NCBI GenBank assembly: GCA_030295235.1
Contig: AP026128.1
Coordinates: 186,001-250,000, forward strand
Direction of reading: 5' to 3'
DNA length: 64,000 nucleotides
From: Fistulifera solaris
Lineage: Eukaryota
This document shows, piece after piece, positions 17,357 through 54,633 of the stretch. The notes under the pieces are model-generated. The model ran no database searches and had not been told where the DNA came from. It was given only the letters and a program-made list of their open reading frames with translations. The translations under genes were made by a program, and so were the position numbers. Every line of letters starts with the position of its first letter. The first letter of the stretch is position 1.

Positions 17357-17436
17357 AGCAATGCCGAATTTAGTCCTAGTTTTTTTAATGAAGCATTTGT
17401 ACAGTAAAACAAGAAAGAGGTGCACAGCACATGAAA

Positions 17437-18078
17437 CTATGCCAGAACAGGCTCCCTGGCTTGTTCTGCTTGTGGTACTTCTTGGTTCTCCGGTACTTTG
17501 ATGTCGGGCAGTTTGTTGGAAGGTACATCCGGCAATTCGATCTTTTCTTCTGGCATTCCATTCACCTCCAAGTCCAATGCTAGAAGCTCGGCTTCTACCG
17601 CCTCTTCGTCTGCTGCAGATAGTGTCGGCACCGCAGAGAGAATTTCAGTGATTTCATTTTCTACTTCGATTTCTTCTTTGATTTCATCCATCAGATTCAG
17701 AACATCATCCACAGTTGTTTCCTCGTGCATCTTCTTCAAACTATCTTTGCCCGCAGCCAGTGCTAACAGCAATTTGCTCTCGTTTTGCTTCGAGTCGATC
17801 GTTTCGACCATTTTCAATACATTCAATAGTTGGTCTTCGCACGTGGCGGCCTGTGTTTGCTTGTATTTGCGCAGACGCAGTATTCCTAAGGCACGCTCCT
17901 TTTTACCTGCGTCGCGAGCAATGCGAGCTTGCTGCACCAGCCGCGCATCGTCATTTTCTAATTTGCTGCGATATTTTTGCAAACGGTCGCGAGCATTCTT
18001 CAAGTCGAGAATGGCGCGATCAATGTCAGTAATTTCGGGCTTTTTCGGGGCGCTTTTCTTACTCAAAGCTCCTCCCAT
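17437..18078 (-). CDS. VPS20: ESCRT-III subunit Vps20/CHMP6 (Snf7 family)
   Basis: MG myristoylation start, ITDIDRAILDLKNARDRLQKY, ALGILRLRKY and a C-terminal ELPDVPS MIM2-like motif. Confidence 0.92.
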   Translation of the reverse strand: MGGALSKKSAPKKPEITDIDRAILDLKNARDRLQKYRSKLENDDARLVQQARIARDAGKKERALGILRLRKYKQTQAATCEDQLLNVLKMVETIDSKQNESKLLLALAAGKDSLKKMHEETTVDDVLNLMDEIKEEIEVENEITEILSAVPTLSAADEEAVEAELLALDLEVNGMPEEKIELPDVPSNKLPDIKVPENQEVPQAEQAREPVLA

Positions 18079-18967
18079 TGTGAATTGTTGGTTGCTGGAC
18101 GATATTATATTTATCTAAAACAAACAATACGCTCGATTTGAACTTTCAACAAAGCTTACCTGGTATTACCGTCCTCGTCATTCGAAGCATTTCATTGTTC
18201 GTGCGGTTGAGAACATGCGGGGGAGGAATATATTCATGACTGCGCAGTAAAATAAATCACGACAGATGACTGTGTCTCACTGGTAATTTTCACGCCGACG
18301 TGGACGGAAGGACCGAAACGCAGGAACCAGGGCGACGGAAACGGAAACGGAGACCGGAAACGGAAAATCACAGATTTCCGAACTAGTGGCAAGGGAAGGA
18401 AACACCGAGTCAGCAAAGAATGCTGGCATATGACCGTGTCGATCACAAATATCACAGCTGACATAAGACAGAGTCACAAAACAACTGCAATAATAGGCCA
18501 TTCGGTTTGTCCGTTACGGAGAAGGGAGACGTACGGAGTAGTTGCGAAAAAGGATTAGCTCTAGGTGCTCTAGTTAATGAGAAAACACACGGCTCCAGCT
18601 CCAGCTAATGGTTTTATGCGGCTACGTTCATGTGAACAATCCCCAAACCAAGATTTGCGAGTTGCGAGATACTCCGCAGAAAAGAGTGAAGATGGTTGTC
18701 ACTTGTCACTTCTCAATGTATTGGAAAGTGAGAAACAGAAACCGGCTGTGGATTGAGGATAGCCAAGGAGGAGTGTTATGCCTTACGATATGGTTATTCG
18801 TAAGGCTTAGGTTTCTGTGTACGAGACAAAGTGCCTTTTTGATACAGCCGGTGTCCGACCGTCTCAAGTCTCAACACCAAGTAGCCCACGTAGAACATGT
18901 ACCAGAAAATTTCTGCCGTGTAAATTTACGTACAAATGCCCATTTTTCATACCCTTTTTCTATTTCA

Positions 18968-19200
18968 CCAGTAACTCGTATGAATGATATTTTTATACAG
19001 ATAAATTCACAATTTTACAAGGAACAACAAAGTAGGGGGATGTCCACGAGATTGGCATTACTTCCGGAGCTACAGAGGTTGAAATTCAGTTCCTGTCATT
19101 TCACAAGTAATGCCAATCTCGTGGACATCCCCCTATTTTGTTGTTCCTTGTAAAATTCTGAAAATATCTATATAAAAATATTATTCATACGAGTTACTGG
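18968..19200. mobile_element. Hairpin MITE (96-bp arms, 41-bp loop) nested in the left arm
   Basis: 18968-19063 and 19105-19200 are near-perfect reverse complements. The element is absent from the right arm, whose equivalent site reads CTATTTCACCAGGAAACGG. Confidence 0.85.
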
Positions 19201-19440
19201 AAACGGCGTTAAAAATCTGCCGCGGCACACATCTGTCTCAGAATCACTAAAATATACATTATCAGCTAGAGTAAAAACGTACTGACTGTTATGAAGTGCT
19301 TTTGTTCTGTATAGCTGATAGATAATCAAGTGCCCTTATGAGCACGTTTTGAACTTATTGATATGCCTCTAAATGCAAAACTCCGCACCTCGCAGATTAC
19401 GCCTTGGGCCTAGTGGACGCAGCAAATGCTGCGCAGCAAC

Positions 19441-19798
19441 TAGTGGTTGGTCTCGAGAGGGCAGTTCTCGAGAGTCTCGAGAATCGAATTTTGAATTTTC
19501 ACTCTCAACTCTCATGAATTTCGATAAAATTCATGAGATGAGAGTGTCTGGCCGTCGCCCGTATAAAATACAAGGGTTCTGGCCGTCGATCGACCATTTC
19601 TCACGTCTATTTCCTACGAAGAAGTCAGTCTCGCGATCCACAACTAACCGTGACTGGAACTTAGTACTAAATATCCGATAGTACTTCGTTTCCGACAAAA
19701 ATCTCCAATTCTCGAGATTCTCGAGAGTCTCATGAGTTGGAAAGTGCAATTCTCGACTCTCATCTCGGTCCTGGTTGAAAGCATGAGACCGAACACTA
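19441..19798. mobile_element. hAT-type MITE (358 bp) nested in the left arm
   Basis: Imperfect TIR TAGTGGTTGGTCTC / TAGTGTTCGGTCTC. 8-bp TSD GCAGCAAC at 19433-19440 and 19799-19806. Repeated TCTCGAGA/CTCATGA subterminal motifs. Absent from the right arm. Confidence 0.88.
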
Positions 19799-20168
19799 GC
19801 AGCAACAGCAAATGCTGCGTGGGCGCAGCAATTGCTGCGCAGCAACAGCAAATACTGTGTCGCAGCAGATTTTGCTGGCTCACGACAGAACGTCGTCTCG
19901 AGAACGTATGAGCTGCAAAGTACTAAATAATTTGGCTGCTATTCGAAACGCGACGTCTTTCGTTCAACACACTTTAAGCCGCATACCTGGAAATCAAATC
20001 TCTCGACGAGCAAAGTGGGTTTTTTGCGCCGAGACCGAAAAACGAAAAATGGCACGACTAAAACGAGTCCCGTACGTTAGGGAAGTGACTCGTCGTCGAC
20101 AGAAATGCTAACCAGGCATAATCACAACAGTAAAACTAACAAATCAAACCATCAATTATCACTAAAGA

Positions 20169-20625
20169 CTACTTCCTTTCTTTTTCTAATTTGTCGCGGC
20201 GAATTGCTTAGCGAACGCAGCCATGAAAAATTGTCTTCTCAAACTCCATGTACTCCTTGCGCGAGAGGCGGATTTGTTCGGGGCTTTTTGACTTACCAAG
20301 CCATTCTTGATGTCTTGCCGAAGCAGCTCTTGTGCGGTAGTCATGTCAAATACCTTTTCTCCTTTGCGGTTGAGTGGTGAACGTGGATAAAGCCGCCGAC
20401 TGTTGATAAATGCGTCTTCCAGTCAACTTGGCTTGCCTGTAATCTGTGGTCTGCTAGACGGGCTTTGAATTGGCTAAAAGGAACATGGGCGAATTCAACC
20501 ATTTTGCCATATTTCGCCCAAGCACTCCTTTTCGTCAAGAGACAACCTTTTAATTCAAGTTCCGTGATAATGATCACGCGAGCCTCACTGTTTCGCCAAT
20601 CAATCGGTTTTCTACGTTCCGCCAT
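20169..20625 (-). pseudogene. Decayed gene for an about 150-aa protein made of two helical repeats; not a DDE transposase
   Basis: MAERRKPIDWRNSEARVIIITEL...EFAHVPFSQFKARLADHR, then in shifted frames EDAFINSRRLYPRSPLNRKGEKVFDMTTAQELLRQDIKNG...PEQIRLSRKEYMEFEKTIFHGCVR*AIRRDK. There are two frameshifts plus an in-frame TAA. Confidence 0.7.
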
Positions 20626-20772
20626 GCTATTACGCTCAAAGTAACTTTGTGTTGATCAACTGACAATTCGCAATAGTGTGTTCGATCAATTTTCTTTGCA
20701 ACAAGCTTGCGCGTCGGGTGATGATGCGGCTTAAAAGTGCGTTGAACGAAAGACATCGCGTTTCGAATAGCA

Positions 20773-21242
20773 CATAGGAGTAAGTAGAAACCCTGGGATG
20801 AAGACATGTCTGTTTTCAACCGTTGATAGTTTCACCGCTTAAACCAACGTTTGTCCGTCGTCAGACCCTTATGCGCTGCTGCTCCGAAATTTTCACCGCG
20901 TAACAGCACGACAAAAGGCTGACCTTAGTGGGCCTACCTTAATACGAAAGTATGGTCCGACCCTTGGTCGTGATACTAAATTGTTTTGAAATATTAAGAA
21001 AGAAAGATTTGCAATGACGGCCAAAGGTCGGACCATACTTTGATTATGTTGTTGACATGCAAAGATCGATCATTTTGCCGTGATAATTACACGGTGCAGC
21101 ATTTTCAAAGATCGATATTCGACCCATTTTGACCGATGTCGCACTATGTACAGTGACAGATAAGCTCATAATACGGCGTATCGCGTAAAAAACGGTCGAG
21201 AACAGACATGTCTTCATCCCAGGGTTTCTACTTACTCCTATG
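20773..21242. mobile_element. 470-bp MITE with 52-bp TIR and 7-bp TSD (P-superfamily-like), nested in the right arm
   Basis: TIR CATAGGAGTAAGTAGAAACCCTGGGATGAAGACATGTCTGTT... (first 42 bp perfect, 2 mismatches in 52). TSD AATAGCA at 20766-20772 and 21243-21249. The empty site is seen in the left arm at 19929-19948. Confidence 0.9.
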
Positions 21243-22487
21243 AATAGCAGCCAAATTATTTAGTACTTTGCAGCTCATACGTTCTCGAGACGACGTTCTG
21301 TCATGAGCCAGCAAAATCTGCTGCGACACAGCATTTGCTGCGCGCACGCAGCATTTGCTGTTGCTGCGCAGCATTTGCTGCGTCCACGCAGCGTTTGCTG
21401 CGTCCACTAGGCCCAAGGCGTAATCTGCGAGGTGCGGAGTTTTGCATTTATAGGCATAGCAATAAGTTCAAAACGTGCTCATAAGTGCACTCGATTATCT
21501 ATGAGCTATACCGTACAAAAGCATTTCATAACAGTCAGTACGTTTTTACTCTAGCTGATAATGTATATTTTAGTGATTCTGAGACAGATGTGTGCCGCGG
21601 CAGATTTTTAACGCCGTTTCCTGGTGAAATAGAAAAAGGGTATGAAAAATGGGCATTTTGTACGTAAAATTACACGGGAGAAATTTTCTGGTCCATGTTC
21701 TACGAGGGCTACTTGGTGTTGAGACGGTCGGACACCAGCTGTACGGAATAGACTACGGAAAAATTAACCTATGTTTTTCCAAAATAACGTAAGCCGAGGA
21801 GGGAGTCCTGCTCACTGCTCACAGCTCATCTTTCATACTCTTGTCTCTTGCTTTCTTTATTTTTCATTTTATAGACAAGTTCTCTCCTTTCCGCTTTCTC
21901 CGACTCCAAAATCCGAAAGTCTTGCCGAAAGCCGAAAGGTTGATGGCCATGATCCATGATGTATAATTATGAGTCCCAAGTCCCAAGTAGCTGTTTCGTT
22001 GTTGTTTGTGGTTTCGCATGTTTTCTGATCTGTTTTGCTGTTTCGGAATCGCGGTGAAATTCCTCGGTACATTATAACGTACCAGTACGTACTGTGTACT
22101 ATATACTGTATTACCTGGTACATGATGTAGATGGTACAGTAGATGTAGTGTTGATGAGAAACTGCATCCATTTACCGTTTAGAGTTTAGATTCATGCTGC
22201 ATCAGCCAACCGACCTTCAAACTTCAAATTCCAAAGCGACTCACACACTAACACAACGAAAGGCGAAGGTAGAAGGACAGACGTACCTAGAAGCAACGAA
22301 GAAGCAACGGAAGCGGACAAACAGCGCAACAGAGCTTCTTCCCCTTCCGAAAAAACGTGAACGGAAATTTTTCGTCCCAGTAACGTGGTTTGAAACTCCG
22401 AAACGACGAATCCTGCATGAACAACATCACAGAATCACAAGCTCACAAAATCAATCTCTCATAAATTCCAATAGATAAGTTCATACA

Positions 22488-23252
22488 ATGTATCATCATC
22501 AACGCTTGATCCGCAACCGTGCATCTCTTGCTATGAATGAGCAAGGGTTGATGCTTCTTCGAAATCTCGACTATGAAGAGGCAATCACATATTTCCATGA
22601 CGGCCTCAAGACCTTACTGGAGGAGAACCAGCATTGCGCACTTTTGGATGCCAAGTTCTCTTCCGAATCAGTAAAACTACTGCGTGAGAAAAAAGTCGAC
22701 GATAAGGCGTCCTTTGGATTGGCGAATCGGACAAATCTCCTCATGTCAGCTTCATATAGCCTGGATCCGATCCAAGAAATCCACAACGAGATTCTTACGC
22801 TGTTCAACAAACCTCTTTCTGTACGCGTTGAGCTTCTCGAGGAATTCTGGGATGACGATGCTGTTCAAAATCTGTTGATTGGTGTTTACTTCTACAACGC
22901 TGGTTTGGCATTTCATCTTCAAGCCCTTGCTTCGAACAACAGCGAAAGCATGTCCAAGGCCGCTGAGCATTATGCTATCTCGTATGCACGCTTTCTTGAT
23001 TGTTCCTTATACAACGGAAAAGACGTCGACGCGACGCTTGGATTACTGGTGACATCAAATAATATCGCTCACATTCATGCTTTCTGTCGGAATATGGAAC
23101 AAGTGGAAATTTGCGTCGAAGAACTAGCCAGCAAGCTGTCCAGTTTTGTCACTCAATCTGGAGAAACCCATCACGCCAACGACTGCCGCATGTTTCTTCA
23201 GAACGTTTGCTACTTTCAAGAGTCGGTCTTTTCGTCGGCGCCGGCTGCTTGA
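22488..23252 (+). CDS. Helical TPR-like protein ending in APAA (orphan family of the type expanded in diatoms)
   Basis: MNEQGL...YEEAITYFHDGL, FYNAGLAFHL, SNNIAHIH and C-terminal SAPAA. The ORF is intact. Confidence 0.75.
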   Translation: MYHHQRLIRNRASLAMNEQGLMLLRNLDYEEAITYFHDGLKTLLEENQHCALLDAKFSSESVKLLREKKVDDKASFGLANRTNLLMSASYSLDPIQEIHNEILTLFNKPLSVRVELLEEFWDDDAVQNLLIGVYFYNAGLAFHLQALASNNSESMSKAAEHYAISYARFLDCSLYNGKDVDATLGLLVTSNNIAHIHAFCRNMEQVEICVEELASKLSSFVTQSGETHHANDCRMFLQNVCYFQESVFSSAPAA

Positions 23253-23455
23253 ACTTTAGATGTAATAAATCAGTCGACGTGTAAAGTTCATTGTTATTTA
23301 CTCTAAACAACGCATATCTAAGAATTATGTAGAACAAAAATTAAAGTGGCGGGTTGTGTCTTTGATGATTTCAACTTCGATGATAACCTGTTCGTGTGCC
23401 GCAAGGTATCGATGTCGTACGCCAAGCTGTGAGTAGTTAAGGCTTTTAATCATTG

Positions 23456-44884: not shown

Positions 44885-45505
44885 GTTGTCGCGTCGTATT
44901 ATTGAAAAATAAGGAAATGAATAATTGCTGTGTGCGTCAATCACTCAATTGCAAAGTGAATAAGTTTCTTCCTTTTCTCCCTGACGAGAGATCCCTGTCG
45001 GTCCTGTCAAATCGAAAATGGGTCTATTTTGGTTACCGCGTCCAGTATTGTTGCTTCTATTTGCACATAGCAACACAATCCACAACAAAATAAACGCAAA
45101 ATCGAAAGGTGGTGATGCCATCACAAATTCACGTCTGCGAAAAAGGTAACCCGTGTCGAACGTCATTGCTGTCCGCCTAATTCAAGATACTAAAAACAAA
45201 TCGTTGCGGTATTGGACCTGTATACAAGATTTACAACCTATATATAAAACATGATCATTGCTGTTACGACAAGTAACTGATATCTACTTAGTACGAGCGC
45301 GAGGTGCGCACTCCGAGCTGTTTCAACGAGCGAAAAACACCGCACGAAAGTCATCGCACACGACAATAATAACGATACATGGACATTTTCCCCAAAAGTG
45401 GCGATGCACTTGATAATAAGTCACTTCGCCCGAAGAAGTTATTATCTACTGTTGCTTATCTCATTCGTTATTGCTTCAGATCATCGTTATTGGGATCACG
45501 AAACC

Positions 45506-46172
45506 ATGTCTTGCTACAAACCGGTCGTCTTTTGTGGCCCTTCCGGAGTCGGCAAAGGCACGCTCATTGCCAAACTGATGCAACACTTTGCGAATGAACC
45601 GTTTGGGTTTTCTGTATCGCATACCACACGACAACCGCGGGAGGGTGAAATCGATGGTGTTCATTACAATTTTACGACGGTCGAACAAATGAAACAAGAA
45701 ATTGCGGAAGGAAAGTTTATTGAATATGCCGAAGTGCACGGTCGTTATTATGGTACTAGGTACGTCTTGTGGCGATGGACTGTGTGAGTCTATTCGTTCC
45801 ATGATTCTCTCTCTCACACACTCTCTCGCAGCATCGCCGCCGTCGATGCCGTCCAGAAAAAGTGGAAAAATTTGTGTCTTGGACATTGATGTGCAAGGGG
45901 TCCAGTCGGTCAAACAGAGCAGTCTGGAACCACTCTATTTGTTCATTGCCCCACCTTCGATGGCCGCCCTCGAAGAGCGGTTGCGAGGACGGGGAACCGA
46001 AACGGAAGAACAGATGCAAATTCGATTGGGGAATGCGGCGCAAGAATTGGCGTACGGACAGGAAGCCGGGAATTTTGACAAGATTTTTGTCAACAACGAC
46101 TTGGAAACCTGTTTTGCCGAAATGGTGCAAGCCTTCCAAGAATGGTATCCCCATTTGAAGCCGATTGTATAG
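45506..46172 (+). CDS. GUK1: Guanylate kinase; intron at about 45760-45830
   Basis: [10 protein letters not shown]-loop, [32 protein letters not shown] and RLRGRGTE. Confidence 0.95.
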
Positions 46173-52332: not shown

Positions 52333-52745
52333 ATAATATTCATGGATTTCTTTCTGCTTCAAATGGTCTCCTATCGTTGCCTTTTATATTTCACTCGTCG
52401 ATGTAGTTAACGTTATACTGATAAAAAAGTTGTACAGTACCGTCCCATTCCCATAGACGAGCAACACGGATCCAGGCACTTTTCATGACTGGATTTCAAT
52501 CATGAGAAGGATGACGTCAGTACCGTTTCTGATGTATCAATTTACATGTAAAACGTCGATTTGTCACACAGGTACGAACGGATTGTGATGATGATTGTGA
52601 GAAATATACCGATCGTTTGAAAAACGCAGCAACATGATGTCGACAAAACAACAATGCGAAGCGCATTGAAAGTGATTGATTCGCACGAAAGAAAAAGCAC
52701 GACATCTTACCGAGTGGTCTTGTTGAGCAGATAGACCCAAGAAAT

Positions 52746-54633
52746 ATGAGACTGCCCGGCTGGCCCCTGTTTTTGTTCTTGTGCGTGTTTCGCATCCTCA
52801 ATGTGTCGCTAGTGCAAAGTTATTTCGATCCGGATGAATTCTGGCAGACCCTGGAACCAGCCTATTGTACCGTCTTTCAATCTCCGTGCGCTTGGACGTG
52901 GGAATGGACGCGTCGTCCGGCGAGCGGAATCAATTTATTAGAAAGTAGTCTGTGGGGTCCGGCGCGGAGTTTCGTGTCTGTCGTTCCGACCATTGTCTTT
53001 TATCGCATCCTGCAAGTTTTGGGCCTGCACGAAAGTCATTACTGGATTTCTCGTGGGCCCATGATTTGGAATGCTCTGCTGGTAGCGGCGCCGACGGATT
53101 GGGCGATTGCCTATTCGGGGGTCTGGTTGTGGGGCAATTATTGGGCCTTGTTGGCGAGTTTGATTTCATGGTTTCAAGCATATTCATTGATACGGACCTT
53201 TGCAAACAGTCAAGAAACCATGCTACTCAGTGTAGCCGTGGCGTTGGTGTGTCCGGAATTGTTTGGGAAAACTGTCGAGGGATTTCAAAGGCGATCTTCG
53301 TTGGCGTTTCTGCTGGGAGGTCTTTCGGTCGCCATTCGATTTACCTCGTTGGCAGCCTTTGTTCCGCTCGGTGTCCTTTTGGCACTGCAACAAAACACTT
53401 TCCAGTCGAAAATCACCTATCTGATCATGCCCTGTGCTCTTTGGGGACTCCTGGGTCTGCTGGTGGGCTTGGTGATTGATCGTTGGTTTTACGGTTTCTG
53501 GACCATTCCATTCTTGGGTAATTTTCATTTCAATGTCATTTTGGATCATGCTAGCTTGTATGGATCACATCCATGGCATTGGTATTTCACGGTGGGTTTG
53601 CCGGTCGTTGCGGGACTTTTGTTGCCCATGATACTTTTTTATGAAGACGGGTGTACCTTCTATTCGCCCCAGTGCGCCATCTCCACGCAACACGACGAAT
53701 ACTGCTGAACCGGTGAACACGGAAGGATACCCGGTAGATACTTTGAAAGAACTAGAAAAACTACATGAACAATTGGAGCGTGAAAAGCAGGAAGTAGAAG
53801 AGCGTCTCCGTTCTCTGGAAGCGCATCGCATCATGGTACAGAATGCTGACTCGAGACAACGGATGGCGGTCCGAAGTTTGTGGATCATTATGCTGTCCTA
53901 CCTGGCTATTATGTCTTTGAATGATCACAAAGAATTTCGTTACATACACCCGGTCTTGCCTCTGGTGTGTTTGTTGTCCGCGCCGTACATTCAGCAACTG
54001 GTGGTCGATTTTGGGTCCCGTTCGATTCGTCAGTGGGCTATTCTTCTTTTGGTAATTCCCAATTTACTCGCCGTCCTTTATTTAGGCCGCTTTCACCAAT
54101 CGGGTCCAATTCACGTCAACAAGGCTATCCTTGAGGCTGCATTGAAAGTTCCTAGCCAAACGCTTTTTTCGATTCATTATTTGACGGGAGCCTGTCACTC
54201 GACGCCACTCTATAGTTATCTGCACTCGCCGCACGTGCAATTCGATACCTGGACGTTGGACTGTTCACCTTCGTGCCGTGCCGACCCCTCTCAGATTTGT
54301 GAGTATGAGCGATTCGATCGCGATCCCGAAGCGTTTGTCGACGAAGCCTACCAATTAACGGCTTGTCAAATGCGAGAAGATGAAACGTGCGAGAAAGTGG
54401 ACAAGATTCCCGACTTTATCGTTACATTTACACGGTATGCCGAAGATTTGCACTTGTCATCATTAGGACTTCATGCCATGGCACAATTCCCCCATCATCT
54501 GAAAGGTGTGGAATTGGCTGGTTGGACGTTCGGGGATACGGAACCTAAATGGGCCCGGTATTCGCTCACGAGTTGGTTGCAACTGTCGGTCGAAGAGATG
54601 GTAGTTTACGCTGGAGGAAAGTTTGCATCCTAG
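52746..54633 (+). CDS. PIGB: GPI mannosyltransferase III (PIG-B/Gpi10, GT22); frameshift in the T-run at 53634-53640
   Basis: SYFDPDEFWQTLEPAY, TWEW, RTFANSQET, YGSHPWHWYF, HKEFRYIHP, HQSG and CHSTPLYSYLH. Confidence 0.9.

Follow-up and report, generated by a model that had tools for sequence, protein, structure and literature searches.

A probable non-autonomous, long-armed DNA transposon carrying a decayed helical-protein gene in the diatom Fistulifera solaris

The window analysed here, a 64,000-nt stretch of the Fistulifera solaris genome (GenBank assembly GCA_030295235.1, contig AP026128.1, positions 186,001 to 250,000), contains a 2,897-bp element at window positions 18845-21741, with TA on either side and CAG...CTG ends. 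The element is intergenic, lying between the CHMP6/Snf7 gene and the next gene of this raphid pennate diatom, and is composed of two long inverted arms, both interrupted by smaller inserts, around a core that holds the remnant of a gene of a protein family termed here the W-module family. Five sequencing runs were found and four of these, X1 to X4, were compared with positions 17400-23300 at 85% likeness, in every case as contigs; X1 derives from organism A, X2 is a wetland metagenome from a separate study, and the kind of sample behind X4 is a guess. The features of the element are as follows:

18843..18844, no strand: left TA flank, the putative target-site duplication, read from the sequence and the same as the TA at 21742-21743
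18845..19984, plus strand: left arm, 546 nt without inserts A and B, first letters CAGCCGGTGTCCGACCGTCTCAA (repeat search, blastn and arm alignment; X1 contigs)
18971..19198, no strand: nested insert A, a 228-bp near-perfect hairpin with 96-nt arms that are 94% complementary; the other arm represents the empty site
19413..19877, no strand: left-arm array of 20-bp repeats, each with the 14-bp palindrome GCAGCAWWTGCTGC, split by insert B (repeat search, TRF, motif count)
19441..19798, no strand: nested insert B, 358 bp, non-autonomous and hAT-like, with ends TAGTG...CACTA; the right arm represents the empty site
19985..20723, no strand: unique core of 739 bp, arm homology ending at 19984 and 20724
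20187..20625, minus strand: pseudogene of the W-module protein family, with its ATG at 20625 (tblastn, phmmer, family comparison)
20724..21741, minus strand: right arm, 541 nt without insert C, last letters TTGAGACGGTCGGACACCAGCTG (repeat search, blastn and arm alignment; X1 contig)
20773..21242, no strand: nested insert C, 470 bp and non-autonomous, with 52-nt terminal inverted repeats (TIRs; CATAGGAG...) and a 7- or 8-bp duplication, (G)AATAGCA; the left arm represents the empty site
21302..21407, no strand: right-arm array of 20-bp repeats with the 14-bp palindrome (repeat search, TRF, motif count)
21742..21743, no strand: right TA flank, read from the sequence; agreement of four X1 and five X2 contigs with the window ends after 21743

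The termini read TA-CAGCCGGTGTCCGACC... on the left and ...GGTCGGACACCAGCTG-TA on the right, and with two further flanking bases GA-TA-CAG... on the left versus ...CTG-TA-CG on the right. An earlier note, made from the sequence alone, had proposed these TA-CAG...CTG-TA ends together with arms at 18845-19984 and 20724-21741 that are reverse complements over about 0.54 kb around a 739-bp core, and the ends and arms are both borne out. A blastn comparison of the element with the window and a repeat search resolved the arms into four colinear, reverse-complement blocks:

18844-18974 with 21742-21618: arm block 1, 89%
19199-19433 with 21621-21387: arm block 2, 96%, E 6e-108
19806-19944 with 21380-21242: arm block 3, 90%
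19937-19984 with 20772-20724: arm block 4, 94%

When the three inserts and one copy of each of their duplications are taken out, the arms agree in 507 of the 537 columns of their alignment (94.4%), which contains 13 gap letters; it scores 887, while shuffled sequences average -200 and peak at -156 (0 of 200 shuffles as high). The outermost 25 nt of the two ends are 96% complementary, and the terminal 18-mer common to both has only two matches in the 64 kb at up to 3 mismatches, both at the ends of the element, where 0.01 would be expected. No match between the element and the rest of the window was found by blastn at E<=1e-3. The arms also possess arrays of 20-bp repeats, which cover 79-90 nt per arm in the TRF output. 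The 14-bp palindrome within them, GCAGCAWWTGCTGC, has seven matches in the 64 kb at up to 2 mismatches, all seven of them in the arms (0.61 expected; 0 of 100 shuffles reach seven).

The junctions of the element are crossed by contigs of X1, with one contig over the left junction (17995-18928), one over the boundary between left arm and core (19866-20262), and one over the right junction (21714-22577). A 1,605-nt contig of X2 aligns with 18616-18768, then 21804-21932 and then 22351-22973, joining 18768 to 21804 through 109 unaligned letters in place of 3,035 letters of the window, which corresponds to the element plus about 138 nt of flank. A related diatom in the wetland metagenome therefore has both flanks joined without the 2.9-kb element. 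The earlier note had called for a search for further TA-flanked copies. In X1 four contigs, and in X2 five, follow the element up to and including the TA at 21743 before leaving the window sequence, and continue for a median of 255 letters that are unlike it; one of these may be the left junction of the present copy in reverse. The flanks behind 21743 are also unlike one another (agreement 0.53). As contigs of two studies stop matching at exactly ...CTG-TA and continue into unlike flanks, the ends are multi-copy. X1 and X2 also contain, with one and the same consensus, a second contig form that has only 21698-21743 in common with the element (the outer 44 nt and the TA) and differs in its inside sequence. 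It represents a second subfamily with the same ends, and is a candidate place for an autonomous element.

To date the three inserts, each arm was used as the empty site for the inserts of the other. Insert B is flanked by an exact 8-bp duplication, GCAGCAAC, at 19433-19440 and 19799-19806, which is present in a single copy in the uninterrupted other arm. The short TIRs of hAT elements start with YARNG. Insert B shows both the 8-bp duplication and the terminal motif of hAT elements and has no transposase, so that its membership is one of structure only. In X1 its contig depth is 66 and that of the flanks about 18, which suggests that insert B is a multi-copy family in organism A and the wetland metagenome. 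Insert C reaches the highest contig depth of the region, at 100-148 in X1 (flanks about 18) and 79-93 in X2, and by this measure is multi-copy. Insert A has no clean duplication; it is flanked by CAG and CTG, and the empty site in the other arm is CAG. These flanks recall the CWG duplication of NuwaI elements, from which they differ in the middle base. An Rfam search of 18000-22600 returned only sub-threshold matches to miRNA hairpins, three of them on insert A. Given the three later insertions and an arm divergence of about 5-6%, the host element is old.

The core contains a single coding remnant, on the minus strand, that runs from the ATG at 20625 to about 20187. When 11 members of the W-module family were compared with the window by tblastn, the only match was to 20187-20634, spread over three frames. 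Lesions were judged against two family members, P0001 and P0002. One base has been lost at 20547, the extra T being present in three contigs each of X1 and X2 and in one of X4, and about 14 nt are gone some 30 nt beyond this point. The second module is wholly deleted at 20415-20419. Other contigs have the missing module, and the loose ends of contigs at this position read NSKARTILIE and KKEYLASIRD by hand translation, matching P0001 and P0002. The reading frame is also shifted near 20285-20290 and interrupted by a stop in frame at 20208-20210. With these lesions the open reading frame (ORF) is a pseudogene, and the same organism has intact close relatives of it. The core had been described in the earlier note as carrying a non-transposase cargo gene; the non-transposase part of this claim is upheld, whereas the gene is heavily broken by frameshifts, a module deletion and a stop, and is no longer a working one. 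The absence of a DDE motif from the remnant also stands, as the family protein shows no catalytic fold or motif. No similarity to a transposase was found in the remnant, and its three ORF frames have no Pfam match.

To determine the identity of the encoded protein, its first 94 residues were searched by phmmer against 1.84 billion representatives, giving 72 proteins at E<=1e-3, nine at E<=1e-10 and one at E<=1e-30. P0034, a low-complexity repeat protein, and P0065, a CCCH zinc-finger protein, were dropped from the list as spurious. Members of the family are 170-300 aa in length and possess one to four W modules of about 65 aa with the consensus IDWxxSxARxILxxDLxxGxL...AWxxY...PEFxxVxFxQFKxRLxxHRxQ, along with a conserved C-terminal part, DRxLYPR...GExVFDxSPAKxLLRxDV...RPEYxxF...RIYQExRRxKF. 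Ten matches were followed for name and number: three are named 'hypothetical protein' and seven are unnamed, and each comprises 1-3 member sequences on 1-2 contigs. No Pfam family covers the W-module proteins, and the FF domain (Pfam PF01846) is absent from all 27 members compared even at E<=10. Retrotran_gag_2 touches seven of the 27 at E<=10, with a best E of 0.014 that lies far below the cut-off, and was treated as a shared helical motif. No longer fused forms of 654-2000 aa were found, which is weak evidence, and no fusion to a transposase or transposase name occurs among the members. Viral contigs scanned with P0002 contained no relative, and the ESM Atlas gave no usable match.

An AlphaFold2 model built on the 27-sequence alignment is all helical (pLDDT 93.2, pTM 0.71), and each module of about 65 aa is predicted to form a helix, a helix, a short helix and a helix. 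Foldseek searches of the PDB and BFVD gave no match at E<=0.001, the best PDB match by sequence profile had an E of 0.52, and a wide structure search with VIA-align gave no Z of 8 or above. Among the 50 rows listed by VIA-align, FF domains are the commonest named match of the module (9 of 50, Z 4.7-6.4), which may reflect a common helical arrangement. The best FF superposition, on 2kiq, has a Z of 6.4 and an rmsd of 2.1 over 55 of 57 residues, and the tandem FF4-6 domains of 4fqg align over 113 residues with a Z of 5.7, both Z values being below the meaningful level. The C-terminal part matches three-helix folds (homeodomain, Myb-like and the DNA-binding part of the P-element transposase) at a Z of about 5, likewise below that level. 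No catalytic fold or motif was found in the family protein. The gene codes for no enzyme: its product belongs to a diatom family, without annotation, of small helical proteins built of FF-like modules. Outside the window, P0002, P0012 and their relatives constitute a diatom family with one to four FF-like modules and a conserved helical tail that has no sequence match in Pfam or the PDB. Through this locus, attention is drawn to a diatom protein family that lacks annotation, folds confidently in prediction (pLDDT 93) and may have a link with mobile DNA.

It is fairly likely that the element is a long-dead, non-autonomous cut-and-paste DNA transposon with a decayed helical-protein gene, moved in trans by a TA-targeting transposase, and it probably belongs to a Tc1/mariner-like superfamily, as judged from its ends. 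With TA on both flanks and contigs that diverge directly after it, the element agrees with the TA insertion and duplication of IS630-Tc1-mariner elements, the TA as part of the terminus also being possible; its inverted termini and arms, the latter 94% identical, agree with the TIRs of this group, recognition of which by a transposase is presumed. The element contains no transposase, and mobilisation in trans, already proposed in the earlier note, is therefore the natural reading. No transposase family was found elsewhere in the window among 83 of the 93 ORFs of at least 130 aa; the ten omitted from the scan are nested in longer ORFs of known domains or run antisense to these. Tc1/mariner elements are given TIRs of 17 to 1100 bp and any TA as target in a review (PMC2874221). 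The arms of 0.54 kb fall within this published range and are not unusual, so the emphasis that had been placed on their length as atypical of Tc1/mariner was overstated.

In the proposed history, the element would have inserted at a TA and duplicated it, and would have been mobilised by a DDE/D transposase of the Tc1/mariner-pogo kind recognising the outer 25-45 nt. The long arms may go back to an ancestor in which one side was lost and an inverted copy of the other end was made, giving a fold-back deletion derivative, and the five 14-bp palindromes per arm, 20 bp apart, could serve as accessory protein-binding sites. The internal gene would have ridden with the element lineage; it has since decayed, and three other small transposons have entered the arms. 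As a single dead copy, the element belongs to an ordinary kind, apart from a passenger that is mildly unusual.

Several points weigh against this interpretation. The superfamily placement is drawn from a 2-bp flank and three terminal bases, with no transposase partner; the empty site in X2 is too diverged to be read at the level of single bases, so that the TA could belong to the terminus instead of being a duplication. No inner copy of the terminal 18-mer lies within the arms at up to 3 mismatches. When metagenome contigs were scanned with the terminal 18-mer, none of the 12 loci found was related beyond the 18-mer, and all are chance matches. X1 is possibly the data from which the window was assembled and is then not independent evidence for the junctions. 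Contig depth in runs X1-X4 is not copy number, which cannot be measured from contigs, and the arm-plus-ORF contig described below may be another version of this same locus and not a second copy.

Two alternatives concern the origin of the gene, and the arm-plus-ORF contig bears on both of them. In this contig, whose depth is 17.6 in X1 and 21.2 in X2, arm position 19985 is followed directly by 20677 of the opposite strand, so that the arm passes without a break into the region upstream of the ORF. It lacks insert C, 46 nt at 20678-20723 and 10 nt at 20635, and has small insertions in the arm; a like form in X3 has its joint at 20701/21262. Single-copy flanks have the same depth, which speaks for a second copy over an allele, though contig depth is no proof of it. 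The gene is thus held to have travelled with the arms in more than one version, and the joint between arm and upstream region in a further contig form favours the gene as part of the element lineage. This argues against a one-off capture of a host gene by or between transposon ends, as in Pack-type transduplication, followed by spread, which would make the gene uninformative about the element family: the arm-to-ORF junction without insert C recurs in contigs of three studies, and a whole gene with its upstream region would need to have been captured. Capture is nevertheless an alternative, though an unlikely one, since the family resembles a host multigene family (72 clusters, without mobile-element domains) and several paralogous contigs over 20415-20581 have unlike flanks on both sides.

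The earlier note had raised the idea of a two-gene family. It is rather doubtful that the helical protein is the element's own second gene, a non-catalytic partner that would bind the arm palindromes in the way that the Myb-like ORF of PIF/Harbinger elements binds their ends, and that the present copy has lost its transposase gene. The joining of arm and upstream region in X1, X2 and X3 is consistent with this, as are an ORF that is whole from the ATG to the stop region and not a fragment, the confinement of the palindromes to the arms at a spacing of 20 bp, and the weak three-helix matches of the C-terminal part. The relatives of the protein, however, are low in copy, with the ten matches described above confined to a few members and contigs each, and none is fused to or named as a transposase. 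The fold matches fall under the meaningful level of the tool and the modules are more FF-like; FF domains bind peptides rather than DNA. A speculative extension, held to be improbable, is that the W-module protein would be a conserved gene of a diatom-specific, TA-inserting, long-armed lineage, that it would bind the arm palindromes and recruit a transposase encoded elsewhere, and that the diatom family would descend wholly or partly from it.

It is very improbable that the arms are a composite or chance arrangement of two separate 0.54-kb insertions in opposite orientation around a pseudogene. Composite-like transposons do exist in eukaryotes, such as KolobokP (PMC9587614), but the inner ends of the arms (19984 and 20724) have no terminal motif and no TA/CAG boundary, and the inner boundary at 19985 is seen again in another contig form. 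A fold-back assembly artefact is scarcely credible. Assemblies are known to produce inverted duplications in error, and X1, whose contigs span the junctions, is possibly the data behind the assembly. Against an artefact, contigs of public runs span the two outer junctions, the arms are 5-6% apart (30 of 537 columns and 13 gap letters) and hold three different nested inserts each with its own duplication, and pieces of both arms are found in the wetland metagenome of another study; the locus is a genuine mobile-element copy, as the earlier note had supposed.

Other target-site duplications were considered and rejected. With a 3-bp duplication, TAC, the ends would no longer be symmetrical, and position 21744 varies among the flanks of the other contigs; beyond the TA, the flanking bases show no agreement that would give a duplication of 3, 4, 8 or 9 bp. 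The PHIS superfamily (PIF/Harbinger-ISL2EU-Spy), with duplications of TWA, AT (target A-AT-T), CWG, ANT or TNA, or none within AAATTT (PMC4482050), was also rejected, since the flank here is TA, bordered by GA and CG. For the CMC superfamily, that paper cites duplications of 2-4 bp. A non-Tc1 family with a 2-bp duplication is possible.

The surroundings of the element are dense in housekeeping genes, identified by Pfam as SYO1, Vms1, OST-alpha, ribosomal S17e, Alg9, Snf7/CHMP6 and others. One of them is placed as follows:

17437-18114, minus strand: Snf7/CHMP6 gene (Pfam)

The nearest named relatives of the CHMP6 protein are from the raphid pennate diatoms Amphora coffeiformis (67%), Epithemia clementina (64%) and Seminavis robusta (53%), and further relatives lie at 90-92%. 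Contigs of X4 reach only part of the CHMP6 gene and 20415-20581. In the wetland metagenome, a more distant relative (about 87% identical in the next gene) has 18395 linked with 22392 and lacks the whole intergenic region, including the element. The guanylate kinase (45281-46169) and the Alg9-like mannosyltransferase (52680-54630) each extend over two overlapping frames, presumably on account of short introns.

A literature search found no description of the element or of the protein family; Repbase and Dfam lay outside its scope, so that 'undescribed' is not established. Diatom DNA transposons are poorly catalogued, and the exact ends, the target, the nested dating and the three further small element families could seed their annotation.

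Among known systems, non-autonomous, long-TIR elements of the Tc1/mariner-pogo (IS630-Tc1-mariner) group share with the present element the TA flanks, the CAG...CTG ends, the range of TIR lengths and the lack of a transposase of their own. The element differs from them in having no inner repeat of the terminal motif, in the arrays of 14-bp palindromes in its arms, in the non-transposase gene inside and in that no related transposase is known. Long-TIR Tc1 elements of the inverted repeat/direct repeat (IR/DR) kind are expected to have an inner repeat of the terminal motif, and as no inner terminal 18-mer is present, the arms are not of this kind. The Foldback (FB) elements of Drosophila are alike in their long inverted arms, short middle and tandem repeats within the arms. 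Foldback arms are largely tandem repeats, and the elements make a 9-bp duplication. Membership was rejected, as only about 100 of the 540 nt per arm are tandem repeats here, the nine bases on each side are unmatched and the flank is 2 bp. Pack-type elements hold captured fragments of host genes that differ between copies. The gene here is whole in outline and is joined to an arm in other contigs.

At the level of the protein, the predicted helix order of the W module fits the alpha1-alpha2-3(10)-alpha3 fold of FF domains, such as those of TCERG1/CA150, Prp40 and p190 RhoGAP, and the module superposes on FF domains at Z 4.7-6.4 only, with no Pfam FF match; the conserved C-terminal part of the family has no counterpart in them. 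The W-module family has no Pfam match to Myb/SANT and in this respect differs from the Myb/SANT proteins of PIF/Harbinger. A gene for a small helical protein without catalytic function, placed next to repeated subterminal motifs, would nonetheless parallel the Myb/SANT ORF of two-gene PIF/Harbinger elements (PMC4482050). If the gene is the element's own, cut-and-paste families that have a separate gene for a non-catalytic partner would include, besides PIF/Harbinger, a second example.

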